Shown piece by piece: positions 1,202 through 58,673 of a stretch of DNA of 64,000 bases (position 1 is its first letter; each line of letters starts with the position of its first letter). Below the pieces are notes generated by a model that was not told the origin of the DNA, searched no databases, and worked only from the letters and a program-made list of their open reading frames with translations. The DNA comes from an uncultured Candidatus Saccharibacteria bacterium (GTDB taxonomy: Bacteria; Patescibacteriota; UBA1384; JACPKC01), in the NCBI GenBank assembly GCA_964423885.1, contig CAYRGD010000004.1:8319-72318 (forward strand), read 5' to 3'. Both the position numbers and the translations under genes were made by a program.

Positions 1202-2227
1202 TTGTTACGTAACATTGATTCGTGCGAGATCGAGATCGAGATCGACAGCCTGGGGAGGCGGGCCACATTGGTGACCACGCGCCCGGATCTTGCGCACAAC
1301 GCGGCGACCCTGCTATTCGCGTGCGAACGCGAGGAGCCGGCGATCGCACCGTTCTCGCCGTCGGCCGAGCGGAAACTCATCGACGACGGGTTCGATAAAA
1401 GCCTGCGCGGCGAGTGGCGGAGCTACTGCTATGCGGTGATCCGCGAGGATGACCGCGAGGGTCTCACCGACCAACTCTTCGATCTCATGGGCGCAGAACA
1501 TCTATTGGGGCGGGCGCTCCACCTTCGTAACTGGATGACCGACCCGAACGCCTACGCTGAACGGTCGTGGCAGGTGAGCGCCTTCACGTTGCTCGCCGAG
1601 CTCGAACGGGATATCGTCCGGCTTCGGCAGCGGCTACCGGCGGGACGTCCGCAGGATGTCGACGACTTCACCCAGCAGTGTCTGTTCGGTGAAGTTGACG
1701 CGATTATCCGACAGCTGCGCAAGATCCTGCCACTCGTGGAATGGGGGATGTTTCGGCGTCGGTACGTCGAACTTGTGGGCGATGCCCGTGTCGATGCCGA
1801 GGCTGCCCAGCTCCTGACCGCAAAGGCGGCCCAGGGCCTGACCGACTGTCCAACGGCGTTCCAGCTATCCCACGGGCCGGACTTTCTGACCGTGTCACTC
1901 GTAGACGTGATTCCTGGTTGGACGGTCGTGTCCGTGCTGACGAGCCAACGGCGGCACGGCAACCTTCCCTTCTTCTACTCGGAGTCAGGGATGCGGTTCG
2001 TGGCCAAGAATCTCAATCCGCCGGGCAGGACCGGCCTAGAAGCACCGAGGGTGCCGGGCGTCCTGCGTTTCGGCGACTACGTGAAGCCTCTTGAAGAGGG
2101 CTACATGTGGCTCAAGACCAAGGCCCTCGAAACGCGGCCCGAAGCGCGTTCGTTCTGTTCGGCACCGACCAAGCAGTTCGTGAAGCTCCTCGAGGCACCG
2201 ACCGGTGCGTTCGTCGGTTTCATCTAG
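1202..2227 (+). CDS. Hypothetical protein with a TTG start. It contains a (GAGATC)x3 hexamer repeat encoding EIEIEI.
   Basis: 341-aa ORF placed between a promoter and a terminator. No recognisable motifs. Confidence 0.5.
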   Translation: MLRNIDSCEIEIEIDSLGRRATLVTTRPDLAHNAATLLFACEREEPAIAPFSPSAERKLIDDGFDKSLRGEWRSYCYAVIREDDREGLTDQLFDLMGAEHLLGRALHLRNWMTDPNAYAERSWQVSAFTLLAELERDIVRLRQRLPAGRPQDVDDFTQQCLFGEVDAIIRQLRKILPLVEWGMFRRRYVELVGDARVDAEAAQLLTAKAAQGLTDCPTAFQLSHGPDFLTVSLVDVIPGWTVVSVLTSQRRHGNLPFFYSESGMRFVAKNLNPPGRTGLEAPRVPGVLRFGDYVKPLEEGYMWLKTKALETRPEARSFCSAPTKQFVKLLEAPTGAFVGFI

Positions 2228-2244: not shown

Positions 2245-2278
2245 ACCCGGCTCGCCTCGTGCGGCCGGGTTTTTTCTT
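2245..2278 (+). terminator. Rho-independent terminator: ACCCGGC...GCCGGGT followed by TTTTTT
   Basis: Hairpin plus T6 after the stop at 2227. Confidence 0.7.
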
Positions 2279-2320
2279 GCCCAAACGCGCCGGCCTGCGT
2301 ATACTTCACTCCTGTTCTTG

Positions 2321-2412
2321 GGTGAGGTGGCTGAGTGGCCGAAAGCAGCGCACTGCTAATGCGTTGACCTCGTAACAGGGGTCCGTGGGTTCGAATCCCA
2401 CCCTCACCGCCA
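2321..2412 (+). tRNA. tRNA-Ser: tRNA-Ser (anticodon GCT) with a long variable arm
   Basis: GGTGAGG acceptor stem, anticodon loop CTGCTAA, long extra arm, GGTTCGAATCC T-loop and a 3' CCA. Confidence 0.85.
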
Positions 2413-2424
2413 CCGAACGAACGT

Positions 2425-2501
2425 GTTCCCGTAGCTCAGCTGGATAGAGCGTCAGCTTGCGGAGCTGAAGGTCGCAGGTTCAAATCCTGCCGGGAACGCC
2501 A
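2425..2501 (+). tRNA. tRNA-Arg: tRNA-Arg with a genome-encoded GCG anticodon (hand-folded)
   Basis: Cloverleaf: acceptor GTTCCCG/CGGGAAC, D-arm GCTCAGCTGGATAGAGC, anticodon stem TCAGC/GCTGA with loop TTGCGGA, T-loop TTCAAAT, 3' CCA. Confidence 0.7.
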
Positions 2502-2504
2502 TCT

Positions 2505-2581
2505 GTCCCTATAGCTCAGCTGGATAGAGCGTCAGCTTCCGGAGCTGAAGGCCGGGGGTTCGAATCCCTCTGGGGACGCCA
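2505..2581 (+). tRNA. tRNA-Arg: tRNA-Arg (anticodon CCG)
   Basis: Same D-arm and anticodon stem as the previous tRNA, anticodon loop TTCCGGA, T-loop TTCGAAT, 3' CCA. Confidence 0.8.
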
Positions 2582-2596
2582 GGATACCAATCGGAA

Positions 2597-2624
2597 CACC
2601 GCGCATGCCGCGCGGTGTTTTTCG
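2597..2624 (+). terminator. Rho-independent terminator after the tRNA cluster: CACCGCGC...GCGCGGTG followed by TTTTT
   Basis: 8-bp stem plus T5. It lies inside the ORF-track 5' extension of the next gene and argues against that extension. Confidence 0.7.
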
Positions 2625-2640
2625 GTATAGTGCAGGCTGC

Positions 2641-3645
2641 ATGAGGATCGCGATCGACGTGACCGAGGCGGCGGGCGGGACGCTGCTGCGTGCCCTGGAA
2701 CGGGCCGACCGCCGGCACGAGTTCGTGGGTTTGGTGCCAGTCCGGCCGACACGGACGCCGCTTGGCCGGTGGTGGTGGGAACAGGTCGGGCTGCCGACCG
2801 CCGCGCGTCGGGCCGGGGCGGAAGTGCTCCACCAGCCGGCCGGGTCGCCGCCACGCTTTCGGGGGTGGCGGGGGGTCGGGAGGGTCGACGACCCGCGGGA
2901 CCGCCGGCGGACGAGGTTTATCCCGTTCGCGGCCCAGACGGTCGTCCGGTCCGAGGCGGCCAAGGACGTGCTTGCCAGCCGGGCCACGTACCTTCCTGCC
3001 AGGGTACGCGTGGTCTACGCGGCAACCGACGCTGGTGCCGCCCACGTCCGTGCGCCCGAGCTCGCGCGGCGGACGCGGGAACGCTACGGCCTGGGCGAGC
3101 GCTACCTCTTATCCCCCGACCCGGCCGCGATCCACGACGCGGACTTCCTGCTCCGTGTCTTCGTCGGCGTCCGCACGAAAGTCCGGCGGCCGGTGACGCT
3201 CGCGCTCCGGGTCGACGGCGCTCGGGCGCTCGGGCCGCTCCTGGAACGGATCCGTGACCTCGGCCTCGCCCACGTGGTGAGGCTCCTGCCTGCCGTGCCC
3301 GACCGCGACTGGCCGCTCATCCTGGCCGGTGCCGCGGCCGCGGTCTTTCCTCGGCGCGACGATCTGGTTGCCAGCGCGCCGCTCGCCGTGCTGGCGTACG
3401 GCCTGCCGACGGTCGCTGCCGCTGCGGGCGCGATCCCCGAGCTCGTGGGGCCGGCCGCCATCCTCGTGCCGCCCGACGACGCGGCCGCCTGGACGAAGGC
3501 GCTCGCCGGACTCATGGCCGACGCGGCGCTCCGGCGCGACTACGCCGGGCGGGCGGCCAAGCAGGCCCGGCGGTTCAGTTGGGAGCGGGCCGCGCGCGAG
3601 ACGGTGCGCGTCTATGAGCGGGCGCTACGTGACCGTCGGCCCTAG
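2641..3645 (+). CDS. Glycosyltransferase family 4 (GT1-fold, RfaG-like)
   Basis: MRIAIDV... start. C-terminal GT4 signature (retaining GT-B C-domain with a conserved E in ...GLPTVAAAAGAIPELV...). TATAGT 9 nt upstream of the ATG. Confidence 0.75.
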   Translation: MRIAIDVTEAAGGTLLRALERADRRHEFVGLVPVRPTRTPLGRWWWEQVGLPTAARRAGAEVLHQPAGSPPRFRGWRGVGRVDDPRDRRRTRFIPFAAQTVVRSEAAKDVLASRATYLPARVRVVYAATDAGAAHVRAPELARRTRERYGLGERYLLSPDPAAIHDADFLLRVFVGVRTKVRRPVTLALRVDGARALGPLLERIRDLGLAHVVRLLPAVPDRDWPLILAGAAAAVFPRRDDLVASAPLAVLAYGLPTVAAAAGAIPELVGPAAILVPPDDAAAWTKALAGLMADAALRRDYAGRAAKQARRFSWERAARETVRVYERALRDRRP

Positions 3646-16677: not shown

Positions 16678-17055
16678 ATGGCCAACGAGACACGTATCCT
16701 TGTCGCCGAAGACGAGCCCGCGATCGCCAAGGCGCTCGAGCTGAAACTCACCCATGCCGGGTACCAGGTCGACTGGGCCGCCGACGGCGACGAAGCGCTC
16801 GCCAAACTCGACGACGGAAAATACTCCCTGCTCCTGCTCGACCTCATCATGCCGAAGAAAGACGGGTTCGGGGTACTCGAGGCGCTGCAGTCGGGCAAGC
16901 GCAAGGTGCCGGTGATCGTGCTTACGAACCTGGGCCAGGAAGAAGACCTGGAGCGGGCCAAGAAGCTGGGCGCGACCGACTACTTCGTGAAGGCGGACAC
17001 CCCGATCGCCGAGGTGGTCAGCCACGTGGAGGATAAACTCAAACATGCGGATTGA
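16678..17055 (+). CDS. Stand-alone REC-domain response regulator (CheY/PilH-like) directly upstream of pilB
   Basis: ILVAEDEP...LLLLDLIMPKKDG...VIVLTN..K receiver motifs, GGAGG SD and an 11-nt overlap with pilB. Confidence 0.8.
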   Translation: MANETRILVAEDEPAIAKALELKLTHAGYQVDWAADGDEALAKLDDGKYSLLLLDLIMPKKDGFGVLEALQSGKRKVPVIVLTNLGQEEDLERAKKLGATDYFVKADTPIAEVVSHVEDKLKHAD

Positions 17056-18694
17056 CGACGCGAAACTCCAGACGATCCTCTCGAAAGAGCACTATGTCGG
17101 CGAGGCCGACCTCGCCAAGGCGGTCGCCTTTACGCGCGAGCACAAGACGCCGCTCGCCGATTACCTGCTGACCGCCGGGCTCATTACCGACGAGCTCTTG
17201 GGCCAGGCGATCGCCGAGTCGTTCACCGTGCCGTACGCCGACCTGGCTGCCCATCCGCCGCTCCGCGACCAAGTGCTCAAGATCCCGTTCGCCGTCGCGA
17301 CCGCCCACCGGCTGATTCTGTTCGAAGACGAACCGAAGCAGGTCGTCGTCGCCACCGACGCGCCCGACAGCACGGATGCCAAGCAGGCCCTGGCCGAGGT
17401 CTTTCCTGGCCGTAAGGTCGCGTTCGCCTACGCCCTGCCCTCGGCGATCGACGAGCAGCTCGGTTTCTTCCGTAAGCCGCTCGAGACGCGGACCAGCAAG
17501 ATCATCGAGGACGGCGGCCACGTCGCCCCGGAAATCATCGACGCGATCATCGACGACGCGATCAGCCTGCGGGCAAGCGACATCCACTTCGAGCCGGAGG
17601 CTGACGAGGTGATCGTCCGGTTCCGGATCGACAGCGTGCTCCAGGAAGGCGTTCGGATCGCGCGCGAGCACTACGAGACGATCGTCAACCGCATCAAGGT
17701 CCAGGCCCGGATGCGGATCGACGAACACCACGAGGCGCAGGACGGCGCGATCCGCTACGAACAGCACGAACGGACGGTCGACCTGCGTGTCTCGGTGGTA
17801 CCGACGCTCGACGGCGAGAAGGTCGTGATGCGCGTGCTCGCCGAGTACGTCCGCAGCTTCACGCTCGCGAACCTCGGCCTGTCGGCCCGCCACCAGGCCG
17901 AGCTTACGGCCGCGGCCAAGAAGCCGTTCGGCATGGTGCTCGTCACCGGCCCGACCGGTGCCGGCAAGACGACGACGCTCTACGCGCTGCTCAAATTATT
18001 GAACCGCCCCGAGGTCAACATCACCACGATCGAGGACCCGGTCGAGTACAAGGTGCCGGGTATGAACCAGATCCAGGTCGATCCGCTCACCAACCTGACC
18101 TTCGCGAGCGGGTTGAAATCGATCCTCCGGCAGGATCCGGACATCATCCTGGTGGGCGAGGTCCGCGACGAAGAGACGAGCGAGATCGCGATCAATGCGG
18201 CACTGACCGGCCACCTGCTCTTCACGACGTTCCACGCCAACGACGCCGCGACCGCGATCCCGCGCCTGCTCGACATGCACGTCGAGCCGTACCTGCTGTC
18301 GTCGACGCTCACGGTCATCATCGCCCAGCGGCTGGTGCGGCGGATCTGCACGAACTGCCGCTACAGCCAGACCTTGAAGCTCGCACAGGTCGAAAAGGTG
18401 CTGCCGGGTGCCAAGCGGTTCTTCGACGGCACCATGGTGACGCTCTACAAGGGCAAGGGCTGCGAGGTCTGCCATGGCACCGGGTACCGTGGCCGGATCG
18501 GGATCTTCGAGTTCCTGCCAGTGACGCCACAGCTCCAAGAGCTCATCCTCACCAATCCGTCGGGCGCCGAGATCGCCCGGCTGGCCGTCAAGCAAGGAAA
18601 CCCGACGATGTTCGACGACGGCATCGAGAAGGTGCTCGCCGGTATCACGACGCTCGACGAACTGATGCGCGTCACCGCGCCGCCGGCGGCATAA
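17045..18694 (+). CDS. pilB: Type IV pilus assembly ATPase PilB (GspE family)
   Basis: N-terminal GSPII_E_N domain, Walker A GPTGAGKTTT, Asp/His boxes and a tetracysteine C-x2-C...C-x2-C. Confidence 0.9.
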   Translation: MRIDDAKLQTILSKEHYVGEADLAKAVAFTREHKTPLADYLLTAGLITDELLGQAIAESFTVPYADLAAHPPLRDQVLKIPFAVATAHRLILFEDEPKQVVVATDAPDSTDAKQALAEVFPGRKVAFAYALPSAIDEQLGFFRKPLETRTSKIIEDGGHVAPEIIDAIIDDAISLRASDIHFEPEADEVIVRFRIDSVLQEGVRIAREHYETIVNRIKVQARMRIDEHHEAQDGAIRYEQHERTVDLRVSVVPTLDGEKVVMRVLAEYVRSFTLANLGLSARHQAELTAAAKKPFGMVLVTGPTGAGKTTTLYALLKLLNRPEVNITTIEDPVEYKVPGMNQIQVDPLTNLTFASGLKSILRQDPDIILVGEVRDEETSEIAINAALTGHLLFTTFHANDAATAIPRLLDMHVEPYLLSSTLTVIIAQRLVRRICTNCRYSQTLKLAQVEKVLPGAKRFFDGTMVTLYKGKGCEVCHGTGYRGRIGIFEFLPVTPQLQELILTNPSGAEIARLAVKQGNPTMFDDGIEKVLAGITTLDELMRVTAPPAA

Positions 18695-18704
18695 GAAGAG
18701 CGCC

Positions 18705-20180
18705 ATGGGGCAGGCGACGACACCATCCACACTGCGCCGGACGACGAACGCGCTCGAGCTCGTCGGCATCGGGCCGGAGCGCGACCAGTTCCTTGAGAAC
18801 CTGTCGCTGCTCGTCGGATCCGGCACCGGCGTGCTCGTGGCGCTCGACAGCCTCCAGGCTGACGCCCGGTCGCATGCGATGCGCCGAATCATCGGCCGCG
18901 TGCGTGCGGACGTGGACGCCGGCCAGCCGTTGTCGAAGGCGCTCGCCGCCACCGGTTTGCTGTCGCCGCAGGTGATCTCGCTGCTCGCGATCGGCGAGTC
19001 GTCGGGCCGGCTGCCCGAGAACCTCAAGGTCGTGGCCGTCCAGCAGCAGAAAGAGCGGCTGTTCCAGTCGAAGCTGGTCTCGGCGATGATCTACCCGGCA
19101 CTCGTGTTCGGCATCACCATCCTGGTCGGGCTCATCATCGCCTGGTTCATCCTGCCGAAACTGGCATTGGTCTTTGGCCAGCTCCAGCTCGACCTGCCGG
19201 TCATGACCAAGATCCTCATCGCCGTAGGCGCGTTCCTCAACCGCTACGGGATCGTCGCCGTCCCGGCGCTCATCGCCGCCGGCGTCGTGGCGACCTACCT
19301 GTGCTTCTTCGCCGCGCCCACGCGCTGGATCGGCGAGCGGTTTATCCTGGCGATCCCCGGCCTGCGGCGCGTCGTCGTCGAGGTCGAACTCGCCCGGTTC
19401 AGTTACGTGATGGGCACCCTGCTCGAGGCCGGCCTGCCCGTACTCGACACGCTCGGGGCGATCGAGTCGGCGACGCCGTTCACGACCTACCGGCGCCTCT
19501 ACGGCCACCTGCGCCGCCAGCTGGCCGACGGCCACTCGTTCCGCAGCGCGCTCGAGTCGTACCCGAACGTCCGCCTGCTCGTCCCGATCCCGATCCAGCA
19601 GCTTATCAACGCCTCGGAGCAGTCCGGCAGCTTGGCCGGCTCGTTCCTGCGTATCAGCGCCCTGTACGAAGAGAAGACCGATATCACGACCAAGAACCTG
19701 GTCGTGGTCATCGAGCCGGTGTTGCTCGTACTGGTTTGGCTCGGCGTCATGTTCGTGGCTGTCGCCGTCATCCTGCCGATCTACCGGCTCGTGGGTGAGT
19801 TCAATACGACGGCCCTCGAACCGGCCACGTCGACGGAGCCGACCGTGACCGAGGCGGAGACGCCAGTGAGCGTACCGGTGGTAGCCAAGGCGGTACCCGA
19901 GGCGCCGGCCGACGGCCTGCCGCTGCCCGGCACCGTGTTGGGTGCACGCGATCCCGCGGCGACCGCTGCAGCCAGCCAGCCGACCGTGCTTGTGGCTGAC
20001 GGCGTGAGCTACGTCAACGTCCGCGACCGGCCGAGCGAGCACGGTGCGCTGGTCGGCCGCGCCGAGCCGGGCACGGACTACCCGGTGCTCGCAGCGGACA
20101 GCGGGTGGTACCAGATTACGTTGCCAGCAGGAGGGGTGGGGTGGGTATCCGGCCAGTTCGTCACGACCGTACAGCAGTAA
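18705..20180 (+). CDS. pilC: Type IV pilus platform protein PilC (GspF family) fused to a C-terminal SH3b-like domain
   Basis: Two GspF repeats (...IESATPF.., ..LYEEKTD..) with 3 TM segments, then a Thr/Pro/Ala linker and YVNVRDRPS..GWYQITLP..GWVSGQFV (bacterial SH3-like). Confidence 0.8.
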   Translation: MGQATTPSTLRRTTNALELVGIGPERDQFLENLSLLVGSGTGVLVALDSLQADARSHAMRRIIGRVRADVDAGQPLSKALAATGLLSPQVISLLAIGESSGRLPENLKVVAVQQQKERLFQSKLVSAMIYPALVFGITILVGLIIAWFILPKLALVFGQLQLDLPVMTKILIAVGAFLNRYGIVAVPALIAAGVVATYLCFFAAPTRWIGERFILAIPGLRRVVVEVELARFSYVMGTLLEAGLPVLDTLGAIESATPFTTYRRLYGHLRRQLADGHSFRSALESYPNVRLLVPIPIQQLINASEQSGSLAGSFLRISALYEEKTDITTKNLVVVIEPVLLVLVWLGVMFVAVAVILPIYRLVGEFNTTALEPATSTEPTVTEAETPVSVPVVAKAVPEAPADGLPLPGTVLGARDPAATAAASQPTVLVADGVSYVNVRDRPSEHGALVGRAEPGTDYPVLAADSGWYQITLPAGGVGWVSGQFVTTVQQ

Positions 20181-20620
20181 GCGGCGCCGTTGAGCACGGC
20201 TTCACGTTGCTCGAGGTGCTGCTGTCGCTTGCGCTCATGTCGGCGATCGTCGGCGTGTCCGCGCCGATCTACCAGTCGTTCCAAGTGAAGAACGACCTCG
20301 ACCTGGCCGCCAACGCGGTCGCTGCGGGGTTCCGCCGCGCCCAGATCCTGTCGCTCGCGAGCGACGGCGACAGCTCGTGGGGCGTCCATATCGCTGCCGG
20401 CTCGATCACGATCTTCAAGGGTGCGAGCTACGCTGGCCGCGACAGCGCCTACGACGAAACCACCGTCGTGCCGGGCACGATCACGCCGACCGGTCTTGGC
20501 GACGCGGTCTTCGCGCGTGTCACCGGCGCCTCGGGCGCGGCCGGGACGGTGACCCTGACCGCGAGCACCGGCCAGGTGCGCACGGTCGCGCTGTCGGCGA
20601 AAGGTACGGTGACGTACTGA
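20141..20620 (+). CDS. Pseudopilin/minor pilin with a class III (prepilin) signal. GTG start preceded by AGGAGG.
   Basis: ...EHG|FTLLEVLLSLALMSAIVGV. RBS AGGAGG at 20129-20134. Overlaps the pilC 3' end. Confidence 0.65.
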   Translation: MGIRPVRHDRTAVSGAVEHGFTLLEVLLSLALMSAIVGVSAPIYQSFQVKNDLDLAANAVAAGFRRAQILSLASDGDSSWGVHIAAGSITIFKGASYAGRDSAYDETTVVPGTITPTGLGDAVFARVTGASGAAGTVTLTASTGQVRTVALSAKGTVTY

Positions 20621-23600
20621 TGCACGTCCGGCCGACCGACAACCGGGCAGCGCACGGCCAGGGCGGCTTCTCGCTCGTCGAGGCGATGCTGTCGGCCGCG
20701 GTGTTCTCGATCGTGGTCACGAGCTTCGCCGGCGCGCTCATCGTGGGCCAGCAGTCCACGCTCGGTGCCGGTGCCCGCGCCCGGGCGATGAACCTGGCCG
20801 AAGAGGGGCTCGAGTCGGTCCGCAACATCCGCGACCAGGCGATGAACGAGCTCCAGTACGCCCAGAGCGGCGTCCAGGTGTCCGGCAACGTCTGGGGGTT
20901 CCTGGGCGAGGGTTCGACCGAAACGATTGACACGTTCACGCGCACGATCAGTTTCGGGGACGTGTGCCGCACCGGCGCGAACGTGATCGCCGCCTGCCCG
21001 GCGAGCTACACCGACCCGCACACGAAACAGGTCACCGTCGCGGTCAGCTGGCCGGTCGGGCCGGGATTGACCACCAGCTCGGTCACCCGGGTGAGCTACC
21101 TGACCGATTGGGAATCGGCCAGCTGGACGCAGACCAACTGGATCGGCGGGTCGGGACAAGTCGCCTGGTCGGCCACCGACAAATACGACAGCGCGACCGG
21201 CGTCAACGTTGGCGTCGCCGGCCAGGTGACGCTGGCTGGCATGGGCGGCGGTCTCTTTGTCGACGACGAGCAGGCCGAGTTCAACGCGGGGTCGCACAGC
21301 CAGACGCAGTACGATACCGGCAATACCTGGCTGGAGCTCACCGGTGCCGGCCAGACCGCCGGTACCGGCACGTTCACCTCGCGGATCTTCGATGCCGGCG
21401 GCACGGCGGTGTGGTCGGCGTTCGATTGGGTGCCGGTCCGGCCGACCGGCAAGGAACTGCCGAACGACGGCGCGACCGAGTCCGGCTACGCGGCCGGCAA
21501 CGTCGCCATGACGAACAACCAGTTCCTGTACCACCTGAACCAGAACTCGGGCGCCACGAGCTTCACGGACAACTCCGGCAACGGCCGCACTGCCACCTGT
21601 GCCGGCGGCCAGTGTCCCACGGCGGGCGTGGCCGGCAACCAAGGGAATGCGGTCACGTTCGACGGCACGAACGACCGCTTGACGAGCCCGGTCAACCTGG
21701 CGACCTACCTGGGCGGTACCTCGTCGTTGAGCGTCTGGATCAAAACCACCCAGACCGGCAACGCCACCTTCTGGGAAGCCCCGGGTATCACCGGTGTCGA
21801 GAGCAACGGGAACGGGAACGACATTTTCTGGGGTTGGATCAGTAACACCGGCCGGATCGGGTTCAACGTCGGTGACGGGGGCGGGCTCTTGAGCGCCAAT
21901 CCGATCAACAACAACCAGTGGCACCACGTGCTCATGACCAGGAACGCTACCACCGGCGCGATCGCGCTCTACGTCGACGGTGTCGCGCAGACCGGCACGA
22001 GCGACACCGGCGCGAAGACGACCGCCTTCACGACGATCGGGATGGTCGATGATACGGGCGGCACCCCGACGTTCTACGCCGGCTCGATGGACGAACTCGC
22101 CGTCTGGAACCGCGTACTCAGTCCCACCGAGGCGGCCGATATCTACCGCCGGGGCGCGCTCAACCTCACCTTCCAAGTCCGCTCCTGCGACGACGCGGCC
22201 TGCGCGGGCGAGTCGTTCATGGGGCCGGACGGCACCGGCAGTACGGTGTATTCGGAGATCGCGAACGCTACGCTGAATCCGCCGGCCACAACGGTGACGA
22301 ACGTTGCCAATAACCGGTACATGCAGTACCGCGCCGTACTGACGACGCTGAACGCCTCGCTCTCGCCGGAAGTGACCAAGGTCTCGCTGCCGCATATCGG
22401 GCTGCTCATCGACGATACGCAGGCGGAGTTCAATACGGGAACCTATACTGCCACCCAGTACGATACCGGCAACAGCTGGCTGGAGCTCACAGCTGGCGGC
22501 CAGAGTGCCGGTACCGGCACCTATGCCTCGGAAGTCTTCGACATCGGCGGTGCTGCCGCCTGGTCGACATTCGGCTGGCTGCCGCAGCGGCCGACAGGAA
22601 AGGAGTTGCCGGGCGCCGGTGGTATGGAAACGGGGTATACGACCGGGAATATGGCTATGACCGGCAACGTGCTCCTCGCGCATCTCAACGAGGCGTCGGG
22701 TACCACCTTCGCGGACAGCTCCGGCACCGGCAACAACGGCACCTGCACCGGCGTCGGCTGCCCCACATACGGCTCGGCAGGGAAGTTGGCCCAGGCGATC
22801 ACCGCAAACGGCACGAACGACGAGATAGTGGTGCCGGACGCGGCATCGCTCGATATCGCCGACGACCTCACGGTGATGGGGTGGTTCAACGCGACCGGCG
22901 CCGGTACCGCGCTCGGCGACATCGGGAACGCCACGATCGACTCGCTCGAGTTCGACACCGCCGACGGCCAGACGCCGGATATCCTGCAGGTGTCCGGCGA
23001 CGTCTACGTGGTCGCGTACACCGGTCCGGGGCAGGACGGCTGGCTGGCAACCTTCACGATCGACAGTTTCGGCAACGTGGGCAACGCCGTCATTGACACG
23101 CTCGAGTTCGATACCGCGGACGGCCGCTCGCCGTCGATCGTGCACGTCTCGGGCAACATCTACGCCGTGGCGTACGACGGCGTCGACAACGACGGCTGGG
23201 TGAAGACCTTCTCGATCACGCCGGCCGGCGATATCAGCAACGCCACGATCGATTCACTGGAATTCAATACCACGAACGGTCTGACGCCGCACCTGGTCCA
23301 TGTCTCCGGCACCGCCTACGCCGTCGCGTACACCGGGCCGGACGGCGACGGCTGGGTGACGTCCTTCACGATCAGTGCTGCCGGCGACATCAGCAACAGC
23401 ACGGTCGATTCCTTGGAGTTCGATACCGCCGACGGGTTGCGGCCGTATCTCTTTCCGGTCTCGGGCAACATCTACGCCGTGGCGTACACCGGGCCTGCGG
23501 GGGACGGGTTCCTCAAATCATTCACCGTTAGCGGCACCGGCGACATCGGGAACAGCGTGATCGATACGCTCGAATTCGACACCGCCGACGGCCAGGCACC

Positions 23601-24927
23601 ATCCGTGGTCCACGTATCCGGGAACGTCTTCGCGGTCGCCTATCGCGGGCCGGGCGACGACGGTTGGGTGAAGACGGTGACCATTAGCGGCACCGGCGAT
23701 ATCGGGAACGCCACCGTCTCTTCCTTCGAGTTCGATGCGTCGAACGGCCTGGCACCGCAGATCGCGCACGTCCACGGCAATGTCTACGCTGTCGCGTATA
23801 CCGGCCCAGGCAACGACGGATGGTCGGCCACCTTCACGATCAGTCCGGCGGGCACGATCGGTGGCGCGACCATCGACACGTTCGAGTGGAACACCAGCGA
23901 CGGCGTCGAGGCGTCGCTCATCCACGTCAATCGGGATATCTGGGCCGTCGCCTACCAGGGCCCGGCCGGCGACGGCTTCGTGACCACCTTCGACATCGCG
24001 AGCAACCGCGGCGTCTCGAAGAGCGGTGCCTACGGCCTGTCTTCGACCACCACGACCGCGACAGGTATTATCAACGGCGTGACGGTATCGAGCGCCATCA
24101 CCAGCGGATGGCACCACTTGGCACTCACCTACGACAACGATCTCGGCTCGAACCAAATCCGACTGTTCGTCGACGGCACCCAGACGGCGACGGCAACCCT
24201 GACCGCCGACATCAATCTCAATGATTGGGACGCGGTGCTCGGGAGCCAGTTCGCCGGCGCACTCGACGAGGTGGCGGTGTTCAGCCGGATGCTGTCGGCC
24301 ACGGAGGTGAACGATGCTTGGCGCCGCGGGGCGCTCCGGGCCAATTACCAAGTCCGCTCCTGCGACGACGCGGCCTGCGCGGGCGAGTCGTTCATGGGGC
24401 CGGACGGCACCGGCAGTACGGTGTACTCGGAGCTCATGAATACCGGCCTGACGCCGCCGAGCGCACTCCCGCTCACGAACGTCGCCGATAACCAGTACTT
24501 TCAATACCGAGTCGTACTTGAGACCGACGCCGCGGCTATTTCCCCGGAGATCCGATCGGTGACCATCCAGCACGGCGCGGGCGGCGGCAGCGGATACCAG
24601 GTAGCGGGGTCGCTGCTGTCGTCGGCGTATAATATGGGCGACGCCTCGCCGGTCGAAATCATCGAATGGGACCAGCAGGCTGCAAGCTGCAGTCCGGCCT
24701 GTTCGATCCGGTTCCAGTTGCGGACAGCGCCGGACAACGCCGGTTCGCCCGGCACGTGGACGGGCTGGTACGGCGCGACCGGTCCCGGCACCTACTTCAC
24801 GGCTGCGACCGGTACACGGGTCCCTGTGGCCTTGAACGGCAACCAGTGGGTGCAGTACCGCGTCGAGCTCGCCGGGGACGGTACCGACACCCCGACACTC
24901 GACGAAGTCCGCGTATACTACCGGTAA
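20620..24927 (+). CDS. Giant prepilin-anchored adhesin-like pseudopilin (1435 aa): two LamG/ConA-like modules plus 7 tandem propeller-like repeats of about 52 aa
   Basis: MHVRPTDNRAAHGQG|FSLVEAMLSAAVF prepilin N-terminus. A unit of about 370 aa is duplicated. 7 repeats of ..LEFDTADG..VSGN.YAVAYTGPG.DGW..TFTIS..G.IGNA.. Confidence 0.75.
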   Translation: MHVRPTDNRAAHGQGGFSLVEAMLSAAVFSIVVTSFAGALIVGQQSTLGAGARARAMNLAEEGLESVRNIRDQAMNELQYAQSGVQVSGNVWGFLGEGSTETIDTFTRTISFGDVCRTGANVIAACPASYTDPHTKQVTVAVSWPVGPGLTTSSVTRVSYLTDWESASWTQTNWIGGSGQVAWSATDKYDSATGVNVGVAGQVTLAGMGGGLFVDDEQAEFNAGSHSQTQYDTGNTWLELTGAGQTAGTGTFTSRIFDAGGTAVWSAFDWVPVRPTGKELPNDGATESGYAAGNVAMTNNQFLYHLNQNSGATSFTDNSGNGRTATCAGGQCPTAGVAGNQGNAVTFDGTNDRLTSPVNLATYLGGTSSLSVWIKTTQTGNATFWEAPGITGVESNGNGNDIFWGWISNTGRIGFNVGDGGGLLSANPINNNQWHHVLMTRNATTGAIALYVDGVAQTGTSDTGAKTTAFTTIGMVDDTGGTPTFYAGSMDELAVWNRVLSPTEAADIYRRGALNLTFQVRSCDDAACAGESFMGPDGTGSTVYSEIANATLNPPATTVTNVANNRYMQYRAVLTTLNASLSPEVTKVSLPHIGLLIDDTQAEFNTGTYTATQYDTGNSWLELTAGGQSAGTGTYASEVFDIGGAAAWSTFGWLPQRPTGKELPGAGGMETGYTTGNMAMTGNVLLAHLNEASGTTFADSSGTGNNGTCTGVGCPTYGSAGKLAQAITANGTNDEIVVPDAASLDIADDLTVMGWFNATGAGTALGDIGNATIDSLEFDTADGQTPDILQVSGDVYVVAYTGPGQDGWLATFTIDSFGNVGNAVIDTLEFDTADGRSPSIVHVSGNIYAVAYDGVDNDGWVKTFSITPAGDISNATIDSLEFNTTNGLTPHLVHVSGTAYAVAYTGPDGDGWVTSFTISAAGDISNSTVDSLEFDTADGLRPYLFPVSGNIYAVAYTGPAGDGFLKSFTVSGTGDIGNSVIDTLEFDTADGQAPSVVHVSGNVFAVAYRGPGDDGWVKTVTISGTGDIGNATVSSFEFDASNGLAPQIAHVHGNVYAVAYTGPGNDGWSATFTISPAGTIGGATIDTFEWNTSDGVEASLIHVNRDIWAVAYQGPAGDGFVTTFDIASNRGVSKSGAYGLSSTTTTATGIINGVTVSSAITSGWHHLALTYDNDLGSNQIRLFVDGTQTATATLTADINLNDWDAVLGSQFAGALDEVAVFSRMLSATEVNDAWRRGALRANYQVRSCDDAACAGESFMGPDGTGSTVYSELMNTGLTPPSALPLTNVADNQYFQYRVVLETDAAAISPEIRSVTIQHGAGGGSGYQVAGSLLSSAYNMGDASPVEIIEWDQQAASCSPACSIRFQLRTAPDNAGSPGTWTGWYGATGPGTYFTAATGTRVPVALNGNQWVQYRVELAGDGTDTPTLDEVRVYYR
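22173..22250 (+). repeat. 78-bp perfect direct repeat, copy 1 of 2 (copy 2 at 24348..24425)
   Basis: Identical 78 nt encode ..QVRSCDDAACAGESFMGPDGTGSTVY.. in both LamG-like modules. Confidence 0.85.
22918..24010 (+). repeat. Seven tandem coding repeats of about 156 bp (52 aa) each. They are divergent at the DNA level and conserved at the protein level.
   Basis: Repeats read directly from the translation: IDSLEFDTADGQTPDILQVSGDVYVVAYTGPGQDGWLATFTIDSFGNVGNAV and six more. Confidence 0.7.
24348..24425 (+). repeat. 78-bp perfect direct repeat, copy 2 of 2
   Basis: Identical to 22173..22250; about 2.2 kb apart within the same gene. Confidence 0.85.
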
Positions 24928-24931
24928 GCCT

Positions 24932-25465
24932 ATGCCGCTGCTGCCTCACCCTGCCCGTCGTGCCGCCCGCTCCCGCGGCTTCACGCTGGTCGAGCTCCTG
25001 CTCTACCTGGCGATCACGTCGATCATCATCACGAGCGTCTCCGGGTTCCTGATCACCATGCTGCAGGCCCGGGCCAAGTTCCAGACGATCAGCGAGGTCG
25101 AGGCGCAGGGCCAGCAGGCGATGCAGGCGATCACCCAGACGATCCGGAACGGCACGGCGATCACGAGCCCCGGCACGGGTACCTCGGCGGCCGCGCTCAC
25201 GATCACGGTCCCGACCGGCCCCTTGAGTCCGACCGTCTTCGACCTGTCGGGCGGCATCGTCCGCGTCAAGGAGGGCACGGGCGCGGTCCAGAACCTGACG
25301 ACCAGCCGGGTGACGGTGTCGGGCCTTGCGTTCGACAACCTGACCCGGGCCACCACCCAGGGGACGGTCCGGATCACGTTCACGGTCACGAGCGTCAACA
25401 CGAGCGGCCGGAACGAGTTCAGCTACGCCAAGACCTTCCGCGATACTGCCACCTTCCGCCAATGA
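24932..25465 (+). CDS. Pseudopilin/minor pilin (prepilin-type N-terminus)
   Basis: ...SRG|FTLVELLLYLAITSIIITSV class III signal. Confidence 0.7.
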   Translation: MPLLPHPARRAARSRGFTLVELLLYLAITSIIITSVSGFLITMLQARAKFQTISEVEAQGQQAMQAITQTIRNGTAITSPGTGTSAAALTITVPTGPLSPTVFDLSGGIVRVKEGTGAVQNLTTSRVTVSGLAFDNLTRATTQGTVRITFTVTSVNTSGRNEFSYAKTFRDTATFRQ

Positions 25466-25866
25466 CCCGCCGCACCGACCCTGCCGCCGGCTACGTCACC
25501 TTGCTTACGGTGTTGGTCGTGAGCGCCGTCGGCGTCGCGATCACGAGCTCGCTGCTCCTCCTGGGGCTCGGTAACGCCCGTTCGGGCCTGGCGCTCCAGC
25601 AGGCGAAAAACGCGGCTGCGCTCGCCGACGCCTGTGCCGAGGAGGCGCTCCAGCAGATGCGTTTCTCGCCGGCGTACTCGGGGACGGCCACCCTGTCGCT
25701 CGGCGCCGGCAGCTGCACGTACACGGTCACCGTGGGCGTGGGCGAGGCCCGCGAGGTGCGCTCGACCGGCACGGTCGGCTCGGTCGTCCGCAAGGTCATC
25801 GTTGCCGTGAGCGCGCTCACCCCGAAGACGGTCGTCGCCTCGTGGCAGGAAGTGGCGTCGTTCTAG
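25462..25866 (+). CDS. PilX-like minor pilin / pilus assembly protein
   Basis: N-terminal hydrophobic helix (GYVTLLTVLVVSAVGVAITSSLLLL), small Ala/Thr-rich domain and an ATGA overlap with the upstream pseudopilin. Confidence 0.5.
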   Translation: MTRRTDPAAGYVTLLTVLVVSAVGVAITSSLLLLGLGNARSGLALQQAKNAAALADACAEEALQQMRFSPAYSGTATLSLGAGSCTYTVTVGVGEAREVRSTGTVGSVVRKVIVAVSALTPKTVVASWQEVASF

Positions 25867-25931
25867 CTATCCACTAGCCAAGCGGCCTATCGATAGGCAC
25901 TATGAATGAAACAAGTACAAGGAGGGTTGCA

Positions 25932-26372
25932 ATGCATGAGCAGCGGCGCGGGTTCACGTTACTCGAAATTCTCTTGGTCGTCGGCGCGATCAGCATCCTG
26001 GCCGCCATCGTGATCGTGGCCCTGAACCCCACGAAGCAGCTCGCCGATACCCGCAACGCCCAGCGCCGGGTCGACGTGAATACGATCCTCAATGGCATCT
26101 ATCAGTACGCGATCGACCACAACGGCTCGCTGCCGGCAGCCATCACCACCAGCGCGACCGGGATCTGCCGGACCGATGGCGTGGACTGCAGCACGCTCAT
26201 CGACCTGCCGGAACTGACCACCAACGGCACCTACTTGGTGGCGATCCCACGCGACCCGACGGCTGCGGACGCGGACACCACCGGCTACACCGTCCTCAAG
26301 AACGTGAACAACCGGGTTACCGTGAGCGCCCCGTCCGCCGAGAGCGGCGCCACGATCAGCGTCACCCGCTAG
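25932..26372 (+). CDS. Type IV (major) pilin, GspG/PulG-like; tandem copy 1
   Basis: MHEQRRG|FTLLEILLVVGAISILAAIV, then ..ADTRNAQRRVDVNTILNGIYQYAIDHNGSLP.. AAGGAGG SD upstream. Confidence 0.8.
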   Translation: MHEQRRGFTLLEILLVVGAISILAAIVIVALNPTKQLADTRNAQRRVDVNTILNGIYQYAIDHNGSLPAAITTSATGICRTDGVDCSTLIDLPELTTNGTYLVAIPRDPTAADADTTGYTVLKNVNNRVTVSAPSAESGATISVTR

Positions 26373-26394
26373 TAGCAGCAAGAAAGGACACGCC

Positions 26395-26838
26395 ATGAAC
26401 CAGCACCGGTCGAAGCGCGGCTTCACCCTCTTGGAAATCCTGCTCGTCGTCGGCGCGATCGCCATCATCGCCGGCATCGTGATCCTCGCGATCAACCCGA
26501 GCAAGCAGCTCGCCGATACCCGTAACGCCCAGCGCCGGGTCGACGTGAACACGATCTTGAACGGCATCTACCAGTACGCGATCGACAACAACGGCGCCCT
26601 GCCGGCGACGATCACCGTCACCTCGACGCCGATCTGTAACACCGGCGGCACCTGCACCGGGCTCATCGACTTAGGCGTCCTGACGGCAAGCGGCACCTAC
26701 CTTGTCTCGATCCCGAAGGATCCGACCGGCGCCACGGTCAACAGCACGGCCTACAACGTGAGCAAGAACGCCAATGGCCGCGTGACCGTCAATGCCCCGT
26801 CCGCCGAGAGCAGCGCGACGATTTCGGTGACCCGCTAA
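26395..26838 (+). CDS. Type IV (major) pilin, tandem paralog; copy 2
   Basis: MNQHRSKRG|FTLLEILLVVGAIAIIAGIV. Largely identical in sequence to copy 1. Confidence 0.8.
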   Translation: MNQHRSKRGFTLLEILLVVGAIAIIAGIVILAINPSKQLADTRNAQRRVDVNTILNGIYQYAIDNNGALPATITVTSTPICNTGGTCTGLIDLGVLTASGTYLVSIPKDPTGATVNSTAYNVSKNANGRVTVNAPSAESSATISVTR

Positions 26839-36211: not shown

Positions 36212-37186
36212 ATGTCAGCCCGACGGACGGTTGGACTGGGGCTCGTGGCGATCGCGTGCCTCACGGGCGCGCTCGTGCGGCTGCGCGGGCACGGGCAGGC
36301 GACGGCTGCGGTGTCGGCGGCAACGGGCCGCGTTGACGGCCGCGTCCTTGGGGCGTCCGTCCGGCATGTCGGCGGGGTCGACCACGCGGTCGAGCGCTAC
36401 GTGGCGCCGCCAGGGCCGACGACCGTCGCTACGCAGCTTGCCGCGCTCGGCGTTACGCTCTATCCCGAAGACCACTTCACCGCGATACCCGACCCGTCGT
36501 TCGGCGTGGGGAGCGAGATCGAACTCGTGCGGGCGAACGCCGTGACGATCGTCGACGCCAAACATCCGGCCACCTACCGCACCTGGGCCCCGACCGTCGA
36601 GGCGTTCTTGAACGAACGGCAGGTGACGCTCGGTGCCGACGACCGGCAGGATATCCCGAACGCGACGCCGGTGACAGCCGGGCTCACGGTCGCCATCACC
36701 CGGGTCGGGATGCGCGAGGTATTCGAGGACGAACCGATCGCCTTCGCGAGCAAGACCGAATCCGACGCGACCATGGAAAAAGGCACGTCGACGGTCGTGC
36801 AGGCCGGAAAGAACGGTGTCCGCACCAAAACCTACCGCATCACGTACGAGGACGGCGAGCAGGTGAGTAAGACATTGATCAAGAATGAGGTCGCAACGGC
36901 GCCGGTCGACCAGATTGCGCGCAGGGGCACAAAGGTATTGACCTACGGCAGCGGCGAGGCGACGTGGTACGCCTGGAAGCCGGGCGGCGCGGCCCACAAC
37001 ACCCTGCCGTTCGGCACCTGCGTCCACGTCGTGAGCGTGGCGAGCGGCAAATCCGTGGACGTCACCATCAACGACCGTGGGATCCAGGGGAGTGCGGTCA
37101 TCGACCTGGACAAGGCCGCCTTCGCCGCCATTGCGCCCTTGGGCGCTGGCCGGATCAACGTCCGGCTCGAGAAGTGCTACCCGTAA
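36212..37186 (+). CDS. YabE/RpfB-like cell-wall protein with G5 and C-terminal 3D (RlpA-like double-psi barrel) domains
   Basis: Signal anchor, then a G5-like VQAGKNGVRTKTYRITYEDGEQ and a C-terminal ..WYAWKPGGAAHNTLPFGTCVHVVS..VDVTINDRG. Extended -10 TGCTATACT 8 nt upstream of the ATG. Confidence 0.7.
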   Translation: MSARRTVGLGLVAIACLTGALVRLRGHGQATAAVSAATGRVDGRVLGASVRHVGGVDHAVERYVAPPGPTTVATQLAALGVTLYPEDHFTAIPDPSFGVGSEIELVRANAVTIVDAKHPATYRTWAPTVEAFLNERQVTLGADDRQDIPNATPVTAGLTVAITRVGMREVFEDEPIAFASKTESDATMEKGTSTVVQAGKNGVRTKTYRITYEDGEQVSKTLIKNEVATAPVDQIARRGTKVLTYGSGEATWYAWKPGGAAHNTLPFGTCVHVVSVASGKSVDVTINDRGIQGSAVIDLDKAAFAAIAPLGAGRINVRLEKCYP

Positions 37187-37215
37187 GTCCGGGCAAGTCT
37201 GCTAGGATACGCAGT

Positions 37216-38055
37216 ATGACCCGCGCACGACTGCCGGTGGCGCCCAAGAAACGCCTCGGCCAACACTTCCTTGCCGATCCCGACGTCTTGGCCGAGATCC
37301 TGGCGGCTGCCGAGGTTGGCGAGGCCAGCCAGGTTTTGGAAGTCGGGCCGGGGCTCGGCGTGCTCACGAGCGAGCTCGCCCGCGCGGTCGGGCCGACCGG
37401 GCTCGTGTTGGCGGTCGAGGCCGACCGCGACCTGGTCGACCGGCTGCGCGACCGGTTCCGGACCGTGCGCCAGGTCAAAGTCGTAGCCGGCGATATCCTG
37501 GCGACCCCGCTCGACGCCTTGCTGCAGCCGCCGTACAAGCTGGTGGCGAACATCCCGTACTCGATCACCTCGCCGCTCATCACCAAGTTCCTGCTCGGCG
37601 ATTACAAGGGCCGGGCGGGCGAAACCGCCCCACGGCCGGCGAGTATGACCCTGCTTGTCCAGCGCGAGGTGGCGGCGCGGTTGTCGGCCGGCCCCGGGAA
37701 CCGCGAGCGCGGGATCCTGACGGTGCTCATTGAGCTGTTCGGTACCGCCTCGGTCGTGGGGCGTGTCCCGCCGAGCGCGTTCAATCCGCCGCCACGCGTC
37801 GACAGTGCCATTCTCCACATCGAGATGGGCGAGCCGGCCGCCAATCCCTGGGCGCTCCACAGCCTTTTGAAGGCCGGGTTCGCGAACAAGCGCCGCCAGC
37901 TCCACAACGCCCTGGGAGGCAGTCTCCATCTGGGCCCGGCCGAGGCGAAAGACCTGCTCGACCGGGCCGGCATCGACCCGTCCTCGCGGGCCGAACAGCT
38001 CCCGCTCGACGCCTGGCTGGCCTTGCTCGAGACCGTCCGTCCGACGGAGCAATGA
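37216..38055 (+). CDS. rsmA: 16S rRNA (A1518/A1519-N6)-dimethyltransferase
   Basis: KRLGQHFL and VLEVGPGLGVLT SAM motifs, then NIPY. Confidence 0.9.
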   Translation: MTRARLPVAPKKRLGQHFLADPDVLAEILAAAEVGEASQVLEVGPGLGVLTSELARAVGPTGLVLAVEADRDLVDRLRDRFRTVRQVKVVAGDILATPLDALLQPPYKLVANIPYSITSPLITKFLLGDYKGRAGETAPRPASMTLLVQREVAARLSAGPGNRERGILTVLIELFGTASVVGRVPPSAFNPPPRVDSAILHIEMGEPAANPWALHSLLKAGFANKRRQLHNALGGSLHLGPAEAKDLLDRAGIDPSSRAEQLPLDAWLALLETVRPTEQ

Positions 38056-43952: not shown

Positions 43953-44008
43953 CAAAGAGCCTCCGGGCTCTTTTTTTGTGCCCGAAACCAGGCTATACTC
44001 CCTCGGTT

Positions 44009-45094
44009 ATGCCCACAGAGAAGCTGTTAGTCGGGATGAGTGGCGGCGTAGACTCGTCGCTCGCGGCGGCGTTGCTCGTCGAGGCCGGCCACGAGGTGGT
44101 CGGCGTCTACCTGCGCGCCTGGGACGACGCGACCGCGCCGTTCCTGAAAGGGTACTGCCCATGGGAAGACGACATCGCCGACGCCCGGCGCGTCGCCGCC
44201 ACGCTCGGTATTCCGTTTGCGGTCATCGACGTCCGTGCCGCGTACCGCGAGCGGGTGGTGGCTGCGCTCGAGGCCGAGTACGCCGCCGGCCGGACCCCGA
44301 ACCCGGATATCCTGTGCAACCGCGAGATGAAGTTCGGCATCCTGCTTGAGCTTGCCAAACAAGAAGGGTACGACGGCGTGGCGACTGGCCACTACGCCCG
44401 GATCCTCGATGTGGACGGGGAGCTGCAACTGCATCGCGCGGCCGATACTCATAAGGACCAGAGCTACTTCCTCTGGACACTCACGGACGAGCAGCTGCCG
44501 TTCATCCGTTTTCCCATCGGCCATCTGACGAAGGCGCACGTCCGTGCCGAGGCGGCCGCGCGCGGCATACCGGTCGCTGCGAAGCCGGACAGCCAGGGCG
44601 TCTGCTTCCTGGGGCCGGTCTCGTTGCGCGACTACCTCAAGGAGCGATTGAAGACCGAGCCGGGCACTGTGCGGACTGAAGCCGGTACGGCGATCGGCCG
44701 GCACGACGGCGCGGCGCTCTACACCATGGGCCAGCGGCACGGCTTTACGGTCGAGGGCGCGTACCCCGGCCCGCACTATGTCGTCGAGCGCCGCTTGGCC
44801 ACCAACGAGCTCGTGGTCGCCCCGGTGCCACCTCAGAGCGCTCGCATTACGCTCGACGCGTGCTCGTGGATCGCGCGACCGGCCGACGGCAGCACCATCG
44901 GCATCCGGATCCGGCACGGCCAGGATCCCCAGCCGGCTCTCATCCGGTTCTCAGGATCGGCTGCCATCATCGATCCCGTGGACGCGCAGACCGCTGTTGC
45001 GCCCGGACAGTCGGTGGTATGCTCGCACGGATCACGCATCCTAGGCGGAGGTATCGTTGGCACTGCGACGCCGGTTCCTACCCGGCACCCTTAG
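44009..45094 (+). CDS. mnmA: tRNA-specific 2-thiouridylase MnmA
   Basis: VGMSGGVDSS PP-loop and the catalytic Cys region. TATACT 9 nt upstream of the ATG. Confidence 0.9.
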   Translation: MPTEKLLVGMSGGVDSSLAAALLVEAGHEVVGVYLRAWDDATAPFLKGYCPWEDDIADARRVAATLGIPFAVIDVRAAYRERVVAALEAEYAAGRTPNPDILCNREMKFGILLELAKQEGYDGVATGHYARILDVDGELQLHRAADTHKDQSYFLWTLTDEQLPFIRFPIGHLTKAHVRAEAAARGIPVAAKPDSQGVCFLGPVSLRDYLKERLKTEPGTVRTEAGTAIGRHDGAALYTMGQRHGFTVEGAYPGPHYVVERRLATNELVVAPVPPQSARITLDACSWIARPADGSTIGIRIRHGQDPQPALIRFSGSAAIIDPVDAQTAVAPGQSVVCSHGSRILGGGIVGTATPVPTRHP

Positions 45095-58358: not shown

Positions 58359-58673
58359 ATGAAACGCGAGGATATCGAGCAGTTGGCGGCGTTGGCGCGG
58401 CTTTCGCTATCGGACGACGAGTTGGCGGAGCGCGGCCAGGATCTGGATGCGATCCTGGGCTACGTCGCGCAGCTTGAGGCGGTCGACGTGACCGGCCTTG
58501 AACCCACCAGCCAGGTGACCGGACTCATGAACGTCCTCCGCGACGACGTGCCGGCCGAAGCGACCGAGGAACAGCTCCTTACCCGCCGGGCCGAGTTGCT
58601 GGCCACGGCGCCCGACCAGCACGACGGCTACGTCCGCGTCCCCGGGGTATTCGCCCAAGGCGGCGACGAATGA
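58359..58673 (+). CDS. gatC: Asp/Glu-tRNA(Asn/Gln) amidotransferase subunit C
   Basis: ..LARLSLSDDEL......L..IL.YV.QL..VD..G.EP. ATGA overlap with gatA. Confidence 0.85.
   Translation: MKREDIEQLAALARLSLSDDELAERGQDLDAILGYVAQLEAVDVTGLEPTSQVTGLMNVLRDDVPAEATEEQLLTRRAELLATAPDQHDGYVRVPGVFAQGGDE

Follow-up and report, generated by a model that had tools for sequence, protein, structure and literature searches.

The 64-kb stretch of DNA analysed here (hereafter the window) contains three tRNA genes in all, every one on the forward strand, which ARAGORN identifies as tRNA-Ser(GCU), tRNA-Arg(GCG), and tRNA-Arg(CCG) (Table 1). The middle gene, the subject of this report, is 77 nt long and matches the Rfam tRNA model over its full span, scoring 71.5 bits (gathering score 29; E 1.2e-13). 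Its letters (GTTCCCG-TA-GCTC-AGCTGGATA-GAGC-G-TCAGC-TTGCGGA-GCTGA-AGGTC-GCAGG-TTCAAAT-CCTGC-CGGGAAC-G-CCA) give a perfect cloverleaf with four stems, an acceptor stem of GUUCCCG/CGGGAAC, a T-loop of the form GTTCRAATC, the discriminator G73, and a CCA end encoded in the gene. The seven-nucleotide anticodon loop TTGCGGA reads directly as U32 U33 G34 C35 G36 G37 A38, and the D-loop AGCUGGAUA puts an A at position 20; the gene has both the NCG anticodon with C35 and G36 and the D-loop A20 that mark a tRNA-Arg of the CGN box. The preliminary description had reported a tRNA-Arg(GCG) with a clean cloverleaf and this same loop, next to a tRNA-Arg(CCG), and proved exact: ARAGORN, Rfam, and direct reading agree on the coordinates and the anticodon, the ccg gene lies where ARAGORN places it in Table 1, and the tRNA finder returned the same isotype and anticodon, none differing. 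The major identity elements for arginyl-tRNA synthetase (ArgRS) in E. coli are A20, C35, and G36. ArgRS should recognise these three positions in tRNA-Arg(GCG), where all are present, and their columns are invariant across 42 bacterial GCG tRNAs. Judged from its sequence, the gene encodes a functional arginine tRNA whose GCG anticodon lies in the DNA itself, and its charging is predicted.

The three genes are closely packed, with a 12-nt spacer between tRNA-Ser(GCU) and tRNA-Arg(GCG) and a 3-nt spacer between the two arginine genes. The promoter-like site ahead of them is the only such site in the region and ends 16 nt 5′ of tRNA-Ser; its -10 region and the bases just 3′ of the -10 are conserved in a relative, contig L244. 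A hairpin between this site and the preceding gene is likely to be the terminator of that gene and the 5′ boundary of the tRNA operon, and a second, GC-rich hairpin with a short T-run is likely to be the operon terminator. A strict terminator scan omits both, the first because its loop exceeds 8 nt and the second because fewer than five T residues follow the stem. With its tight spacers, promoter-like site, and flanking hairpins, the unit looks like a self-contained tRNA operon. Transcription probably starts from the promoter-like site and ends at the second hairpin, and the precursor would be cleaved at the 12-nt and 3-nt spacers, the CCA being already encoded.

Table 1. Features of the window and TadA homologues on related contigs, with coordinates on the sequence named
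Feature	Sequence	Coordinates	Strand	Basis
Putative orphan protein (341 aa)	Window	1202-2227	+	
Hairpin CCCGGC/GCCGGG, 12-nt loop, then T6 (likely terminator of the upstream gene)	Window	2246-2275	+	Direct reading
Promoter-like site TTGCCC, 17-nt spacer, TATACT	Window	2277-2305	+	1 found versus 0.0 expected in shuffles
tRNA-Ser(GCU), operon gene 1, long variable arm, encoded CCA	Window	2321-2412	+	ARAGORN; Rfam 61.1 bits, full model
tRNA-Arg(GCG), the studied gene	Window	2425-2501	+	ARAGORN; Rfam RF00005
tRNA-Arg(CCG), operon gene 3	Window	2505-2581	+	ARAGORN; Rfam 66.9 bits, full model
Common 40-nt core of the arginine tRNA genes	Window	2432-2471 and 2512-2551		
Hairpin ACACCGCGC/GCGCGGTGT, 9 bp, 5-nt loop (likely operon terminator)	Window	2596-2622 (stem-loop 2596-2618)	+	Direct reading
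Glycosyltransferase, longest ORF	Window	2605-3645	+	
Type IV pilus or T2SS cluster	Window	17045-26838	+	
KsgA/RsmA	Window	36964-38055	+	
MnmA (tRNA U34 2-thiolation)	Window	43976-45094	+	
GatCAB	Window	58359-62021	+	
TadA homologue	Chloroflexota contig L024	292-732	-	phmmer
TadA homologue	Chloroflexota contig L080	2904-3407	-	phmmer
TadA homologue	Chloroflexota contig L094	4791-5234	+	phmmer

The protein encoded just 5′ of the operon has no Pfam match, and a search among 5.8 billion proteins returned only itself and one homologue cluster at 54% identity; by these searches it is a lineage-restricted orphan. On the downstream side, the longest ORF of a glycosyltransferase opens with an ATG inside the loop of the terminator hairpin, and translation more probably begins at the in-frame ATG 2641. 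An exact-product look-up of the longest ORF gave no match, probably because the true start is at 2641; the same kind of look-up for DnaB and for protein P0001 also came back empty.

The two arginine tRNA genes are identical in alignment from nt 8 to nt 47 save at position 34, and the other 12 differences between them are confined to the acceptor stem, nt 48, and the T-arm. This 40-nt core comprises the D-arm, the anticodon arm, and the start of the variable loop, and may owe its identity to gene conversion within the tandem pair or to shared constraint. A recent tandem duplication is not claimed as the origin of the GCG gene: the same arm is found on GCG and CCG tRNAs in many unrelated metagenome contigs, so that common constraint or gene conversion fits equally well as duplication.

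Contig L244 (ENA ERZ27258552, 61% GC) encodes the 54%-identity homologue of the upstream 341-aa protein, and ARAGORN finds in it the same Ser(gct)-Arg(gcg)-Arg(ccg) operon. Both arginine genes are identical to those of the window (77/77 for GCG and 77/77 for CCG), whereas both spacers have changed and the terminator differs, its position being taken by another hairpin (ACACCGG...CCGGTGT). The preservation of the tRNAs despite altered spacers and terminator points to strong purifying selection on the genes, G34 included; and because this independent ENA assembly has the identical 77-nt gene, G34 is no assembly quirk. In an alignment of 42 distinct 77-nt bacterial tRNA-Arg(GCG) genes, 99.9% of the 882 stem cells hold standard pairs, compared with 32-50% when the partners are slid, and 16 of the 21 stem pairs have compensatory changes on both sides; the observed covariation score was reached by no shuffle.

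The window has a GC content of 65.7% and carries ordinary bacterial chromosomal genes, including those for DnaX, DnaB, a UvrD/PcrA-type helicase, LigA, MetRS, GatCAB, KsgA, MnmA, ribosomal protein L9, type IV pilus/T2SS components, and many glycosyltransferases. A search with its DnaB gave a 100% match on a 93-kb NCBI contig; the best named relatives of the protein are from a "Patescibacteria group bacterium" (MEK7184224.1, 91% identity), and several "Candidatus Berkelbacteria bacterium" DnaB proteins are 72-78% identical to it. The gene order TPR protein-DnaX-DnaB-...-UvrD is common to the window and a Berkelbacteria MAG (GCA_016198415.1; L248, 63% GC), and the order Laminin_G_3 protein, pilin-like genes, HAMP protein, histidine kinase, DnaX, DnaB is that of Patescibacteria contig L247 (52% GC). 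The DnaB relatives and the synteny together identify the host as a Berkelbacteria-like member of the CPR with unusually high GC. The CPR-labelled loci among those listed below have a median GC of 46% and reach 58% at most, the GC values written into the names of Berkelbacteria bins lie at 33-50%, and the syntenic relatives L244, L247, and L248 span 52-63%; the host is an unusually GC-rich CPR lineage.

Within the type IV pilus or T2SS cluster are genes for a T2SSE ATPase, a T2SSF protein carrying an SH3 domain at its C terminus, a Laminin_G_3 (ConA-like lectin) protein of 1516 aa, and three small proteins whose N termini bear methylation (pilin) motifs, an arrangement kept in L247. The presence of MnmA, KsgA/RsmA, and GatCAB indicates that some functions in RNA modification and indirect aminoacylation are retained in this reduced lineage.

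The usual bacterial means of reading CGN codons is a tRNA-Arg(ACG) deaminated to ICG, which needs TadA. Position 34, an encoded A in this canonical TadA-dependent scheme, is G both in the window and in L244, and the genome-encoded tRNA-Arg(GCG) belongs with a scheme of G34, U34, and C34. By established decoding rules, G34 would read CGC by Watson-Crick pairing and CGU by G-U wobble, which bears out the decoding of these two codons proposed in the preliminary description, and C34 of the neighbouring tRNA-Arg(CCG) would read CGG. The arginine codons of 37 window ORFs picked as likely genes number 1272 (CGC 503, CGG 501, CGT 140, CGA 77, AGG 39, and AGA 12), with CGC and CGG dominant; the count for CGA is close to those of other codons ending in A (GGA 72, CCA 65, and ACA 60). 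Since CGA is used 77 times and is readable by neither the GCG nor the CCG tRNA, a third CGN tRNA must lie elsewhere in the genome, a point that escaped the preliminary description. It is predicted to be tRNA-Arg(UCG), with ICG less likely; ARAGORN finds no tRNA-Arg(UCG) in the 64-kb window. TrmD methylates G37 after G36, and because G36-G37 is present in tRNA-Arg(GCG), formation of m1G37 by TrmD is predicted. Two Saccharibacteria loci among those listed below (L056 and L121) carry tRNA-Arg(UCG) directly 3′ of tRNA-Arg(GCG), and this layout is the G34 and U34 pairing predicted for inosine-free CGN decoding.

A scan of one genome per species (185,579 species) for a bacterial arginine D-arm followed by a YTGCGRA loop yielded at least 120 matches under at least 14 phylum-level labels, and ARAGORN confirmed tRNA-Arg(gcg) in all 120 loci listed. 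Taken from record titles, and as counts among the matches listed rather than frequencies (the window's own species lies outside the 120), 32 loci belong to Patescibacteria/CPR (15 Saccharibacteria together with Gracili-, Kerfeld-, Doudna-, Levy-, Uhr-, Woese-, Andersen-, and Dojkabacteria), 29 to Chloroflexota including Thermomicrobia, 15 to Spirochaetota, 14 to Actinomycetota (Gaiellales, Thermoleophilia, and others), four to Planctomycetota, four to Delta, Myxococcota, or SAR324 labels, three to Armatimonadota, three to "Gammaproteobacteria"-labelled records, two to Thermotogaceae, two to NC10, and one each to Elusimicrobium, Dormibacterota, Bipolaricaulota, and Nautiliales; eight are unlabelled. 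None of the 120 is archaeal, and tRNA-Arg(ACG) is absent from all of them. tRNA-Ser(gct) lies directly 5′ of tRNA-Arg(gcg) in 26 of these loci, and the Ser-Arg(gcg)-Arg(ccg) triple is also found on one Armatimonadota-labelled contig among them. A second scan, of metagenomes, kept the D-arm and anticodon arm exactly as in the window but allowed any base at position 34, and returned at least 120 stretches; the first 120 listed comprise 96 GCG, 18 CCG, no ACG, and no UCG, mostly on low-GC contigs, which leaves the ACG variant at 0 of the 114 tRNAs with this exact arm among the metagenome matches listed.

Published surveys describe GCG in place of ACG in all sequenced Thermotogae and Spirochaetes, with A34 and G34 isoacceptors mutually exclusive across the phylogeny (PMC8007984), conversion of ACG to GCG after loss of tadA in the Mycoplasma Pneumoniae group (PMC3711424), and loss of the inosine modification in Spirochaetes and other clades (PMC6063277). 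We found no published account of GCG replacing ACG in Patescibacteria or Chloroflexota. The preliminary description had called a genome-encoded GCG uncommon and informative about lineage. The first part is unsupported in that form, given at least 120 genome loci under at least 14 phylum-level labels and the published record for all sequenced Thermotogae and Spirochaetes (PMC8007984); "uncommon" holds only for well-studied cultured bacteria. The second part is supported, in that DnaB places the window in Patescibacteria, a group with GCG in the genome scan. GCG appears to be a common state in Patescibacteria, and since several large bacterial groups including this one normally use it, the gene is a lineage marker and no surprise.

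The GCG anticodon has been linked with loss of TadA or of inosine (PMC3711424, PMC6063277, PMC8007984). No CDA-type deaminase was detected in the 64-kb window by a six-frame motif scan, by phmmer with E. coli TadA, or by Pfam searches of the larger ORFs, and phmmer found no TadA homologue in the 7 kb of extra upstream sequence of L002. ARAGORN likewise found no tRNA-Arg(ACG) in the window or L002, about 70 kb together, and there is none in the 240 related genome and metagenome loci listed. Among these, the 32 CPR-labelled loci listed gave no TadA homologue with phmmer; a lack of TadA matches over some 1 Mb of presumed CPR fragments is by itself statistically uninformative (about one would be expected from one randomly placed gene per 1-Mb genome). 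In the same CPR-labelled loci, 11 tRNA-Ser(cga) genes are preceded by 700 nt or more of sequence, in no case with a TadA homologue; this slot 5′ of tRNA-Ser(cga) is the place of a TadA-like gene in two Chloroflexota loci. The complete genome table of Southlakia epibionticum, a cultivated Saccharibacterium with sequence- and structure-based annotation, has dCTP deaminase as its sole "deaminase," lists no TadA or CDA-fold protein, and gives five tRNA-Arg genes (PMC10633639, Tables S1 and S2). The loss of tadA that the preliminary description raised as a possibility is plausible. Most likely the genome of the window, read here over about 70 kb, has neither a tRNA-Arg(ACG) nor an active TadA.

Matches to TadA by phmmer were limited among the loci to the Chloroflexota contigs L024, L080, and L094, each of which carries a tRNA-Arg(gcg); in L024 and L094 the homologue is immediately 5′ of tRNA-Ser(cga). 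A regular expression, [HC]AE...PCxxC, has no match in the loci, being blind by construction to the HAV and HAI homologues that phmmer finds, and its empty result is no sign that the fold is missing. For all three proteins NCBIfam NF008113 (TadA) is by far the best model, at 98-118 bits, which is below its equivalog cut-off of 150 bits. All three keep the zinc ligands (His and PCxxC), but where E. coli TadA has E59, the catalytic Glu of its HAE motif, they have Val or Ile. The closest 120 homologues listed, at 85-99% identity and from Limnocylindrales where named, have TAHAV in 120/120 and PCxxC in 119/120; the occurrence of TAHAV in every one marks a conserved protein and no decaying pseudogene. 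Eukaryotic ADAT3, a catalytically inactive protein, has this Glu-to-Val change as well (PMC8216470). On this basis, the Chloroflexota proteins may be conserved pseudo-deaminases and, if confirmed, would be a bacterial parallel to ADAT3. The presence of a TadA homologue on three GCG-bearing contigs means that a GCG tRNA does not always signal a lost tadA gene; a homologue without the Glu is consistent with loss of the A34-to-I34 step.

The window tRNA resembles those of Thermotogae and Spirochaetes in its encoded G34 within a bacterial-type tRNA-Arg body; the same pattern of D-arm and GCG loop also picks up Thermotogaceae and many Spirochaetota loci, and their GCG tRNAs have a common cloverleaf and compensatory stem changes with that of the window. 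Unlike them, it belongs to Patescibacteria, has the anticodon stem TCAGC/GCTGA and U at position 32, and stands in tandem with a CCG isoacceptor with which it has the whole D-arm and anticodon arm in common. The Mycoplasma Pneumoniae group and M. pulmonis also have G34 for A34 (Yokobori et al. 2013, PMC3711424), and the Mycoplasma model of GCG and UCG tRNAs after tadA loss (PMC3711424) is the scheme predicted for the window as well, but those Mollicutes are low in GC and have lost tRNA-Arg(CCG), whereas the window, at 65.7% GC, keeps CCG beside GCG. Archaea do without A34 and TadA and use isoacceptors with G34, C34, and U34 (PMC8007984), a logic predicted for the window too, although in contrast to the archaeal tRNA-Arg(GCG) the window tRNA has a bacterial body, an encoded CCA, and the bacterial D-loop GGAUAGAGC with A20. 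It is of the same isotype as E. coli argX (CCG) and argQVYZ (ACG), with the D-arm GTAGCTCAGCTGGATAGAG in common. Its best E. coli match is chromosomal argX, the CCG isoacceptor, at 79% identity, and E. coli tRNA-Arg(ACG) falls short of E 1e-3 against it; the body is bacterial in type and not obviously that of an ACG gene with one point change. The E. coli ACG tRNA differs from it in having C32 and A37, and in E. coli the codons CGU, CGC, and CGA are read by ICG, which TadA makes from ACG by deamination.

These comparisons bear on the source of the gene. tRNA-Arg(GCG) is universal in archaea (PMC8007984), and the window gene could have been acquired horizontally, from archaea or with a mobile element, as something other than the lineage's own decoding scheme. 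We regard this as very improbable: the tRNA body is of the bacterial type with argX as its best E. coli match (79%), all 120 pattern matches listed are bacterial, Ser(GCU) lies directly 5′ as in 26 other bacterial loci listed, the neighbouring genes offer no integrase or repeat context, and the operon is conserved in L244. A further possibility is that the gene is a non-functional copy, or that an ACG or CCG gene acquired G34 by recent mutation or shows it through an error of assembly or sequencing. Because the adjacent GCG and CCG genes are identical over nt 8-47 save position 34, one base could interconvert their anticodon arms. The same 77-nt G34 gene nevertheless recurs in the diverged L244, where the spacers are altered, of the first 120 metagenome stretches listed, 96 have this exact arm with G34, and the perfect cloverleaf is accompanied by a high Rfam score; the artefact or pseudogene reading is largely refuted and deserves hardly any credence.

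The GCG tRNA might instead be an extra isoacceptor that boosts CGC decoding in a GC-rich genome, beside a canonical tRNA-Arg(ACG) and an active TadA encoded elsewhere. About 70 kb of the genome was read, CGC shares first place among the arginine codons (503 of 1272), and some GCG-bearing genomes do have TadA-family genes, all of which speaks for such an arrangement. It is nonetheless unlikely, as ACG occurs in none of the GCG genome or metagenome loci listed, A34 and G34 isoacceptors are mutually exclusive (PMC8007984), the TadA homologues seen beside GCG tRNAs are without the catalytic Glu, and no TadA is annotated in the complete Saccharibacterium genome (PMC10633639). It is highly probable, in our estimation, that a functional tRNA-Arg(GCG) sits in mid-operon on a Berkelbacteria-like CPR chromosome, as part of a G34/C34/U34 scheme that replaces the conversion of ACG to ICG.

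The finding is a Patescibacteria (Berkelbacteria-like) instance of an already known decoding scheme. As such, tRNA-Arg(GCG) is a useful lineage marker, in line with the placement in Patescibacteria by DnaB and synteny, and it leads one to expect, for the rest of arginine decoding, that UCG is present and that ACG and TadA are absent. The livelier leads are the breadth of G34 tRNA-Arg in uncultivated phyla and the Glu-less TadA homologues of Chloroflexota. The scans show an encoded GCG spread far more widely among uncultivated bacteria than one would gather from surveys of cultured genomes, and this breadth bears on the timing of the origin or loss of the TadA/inosine system. We tentatively entertain, while thinking it somewhat less than probable, that G34 combined with an absent or inactive TadA is a clade-wide and possibly ancestral state across a very large part of bacterial diversity (Patescibacteria, Chloroflexota, and parts of Actinomycetota, Armatimonadota, and other groups), with the dead TadA of Chloroflexota serving a non-catalytic role. 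If this is true, the textbook rule of ICG with an essential TadA and the published inference of TadA in the bacterial ancestor would both need revision.
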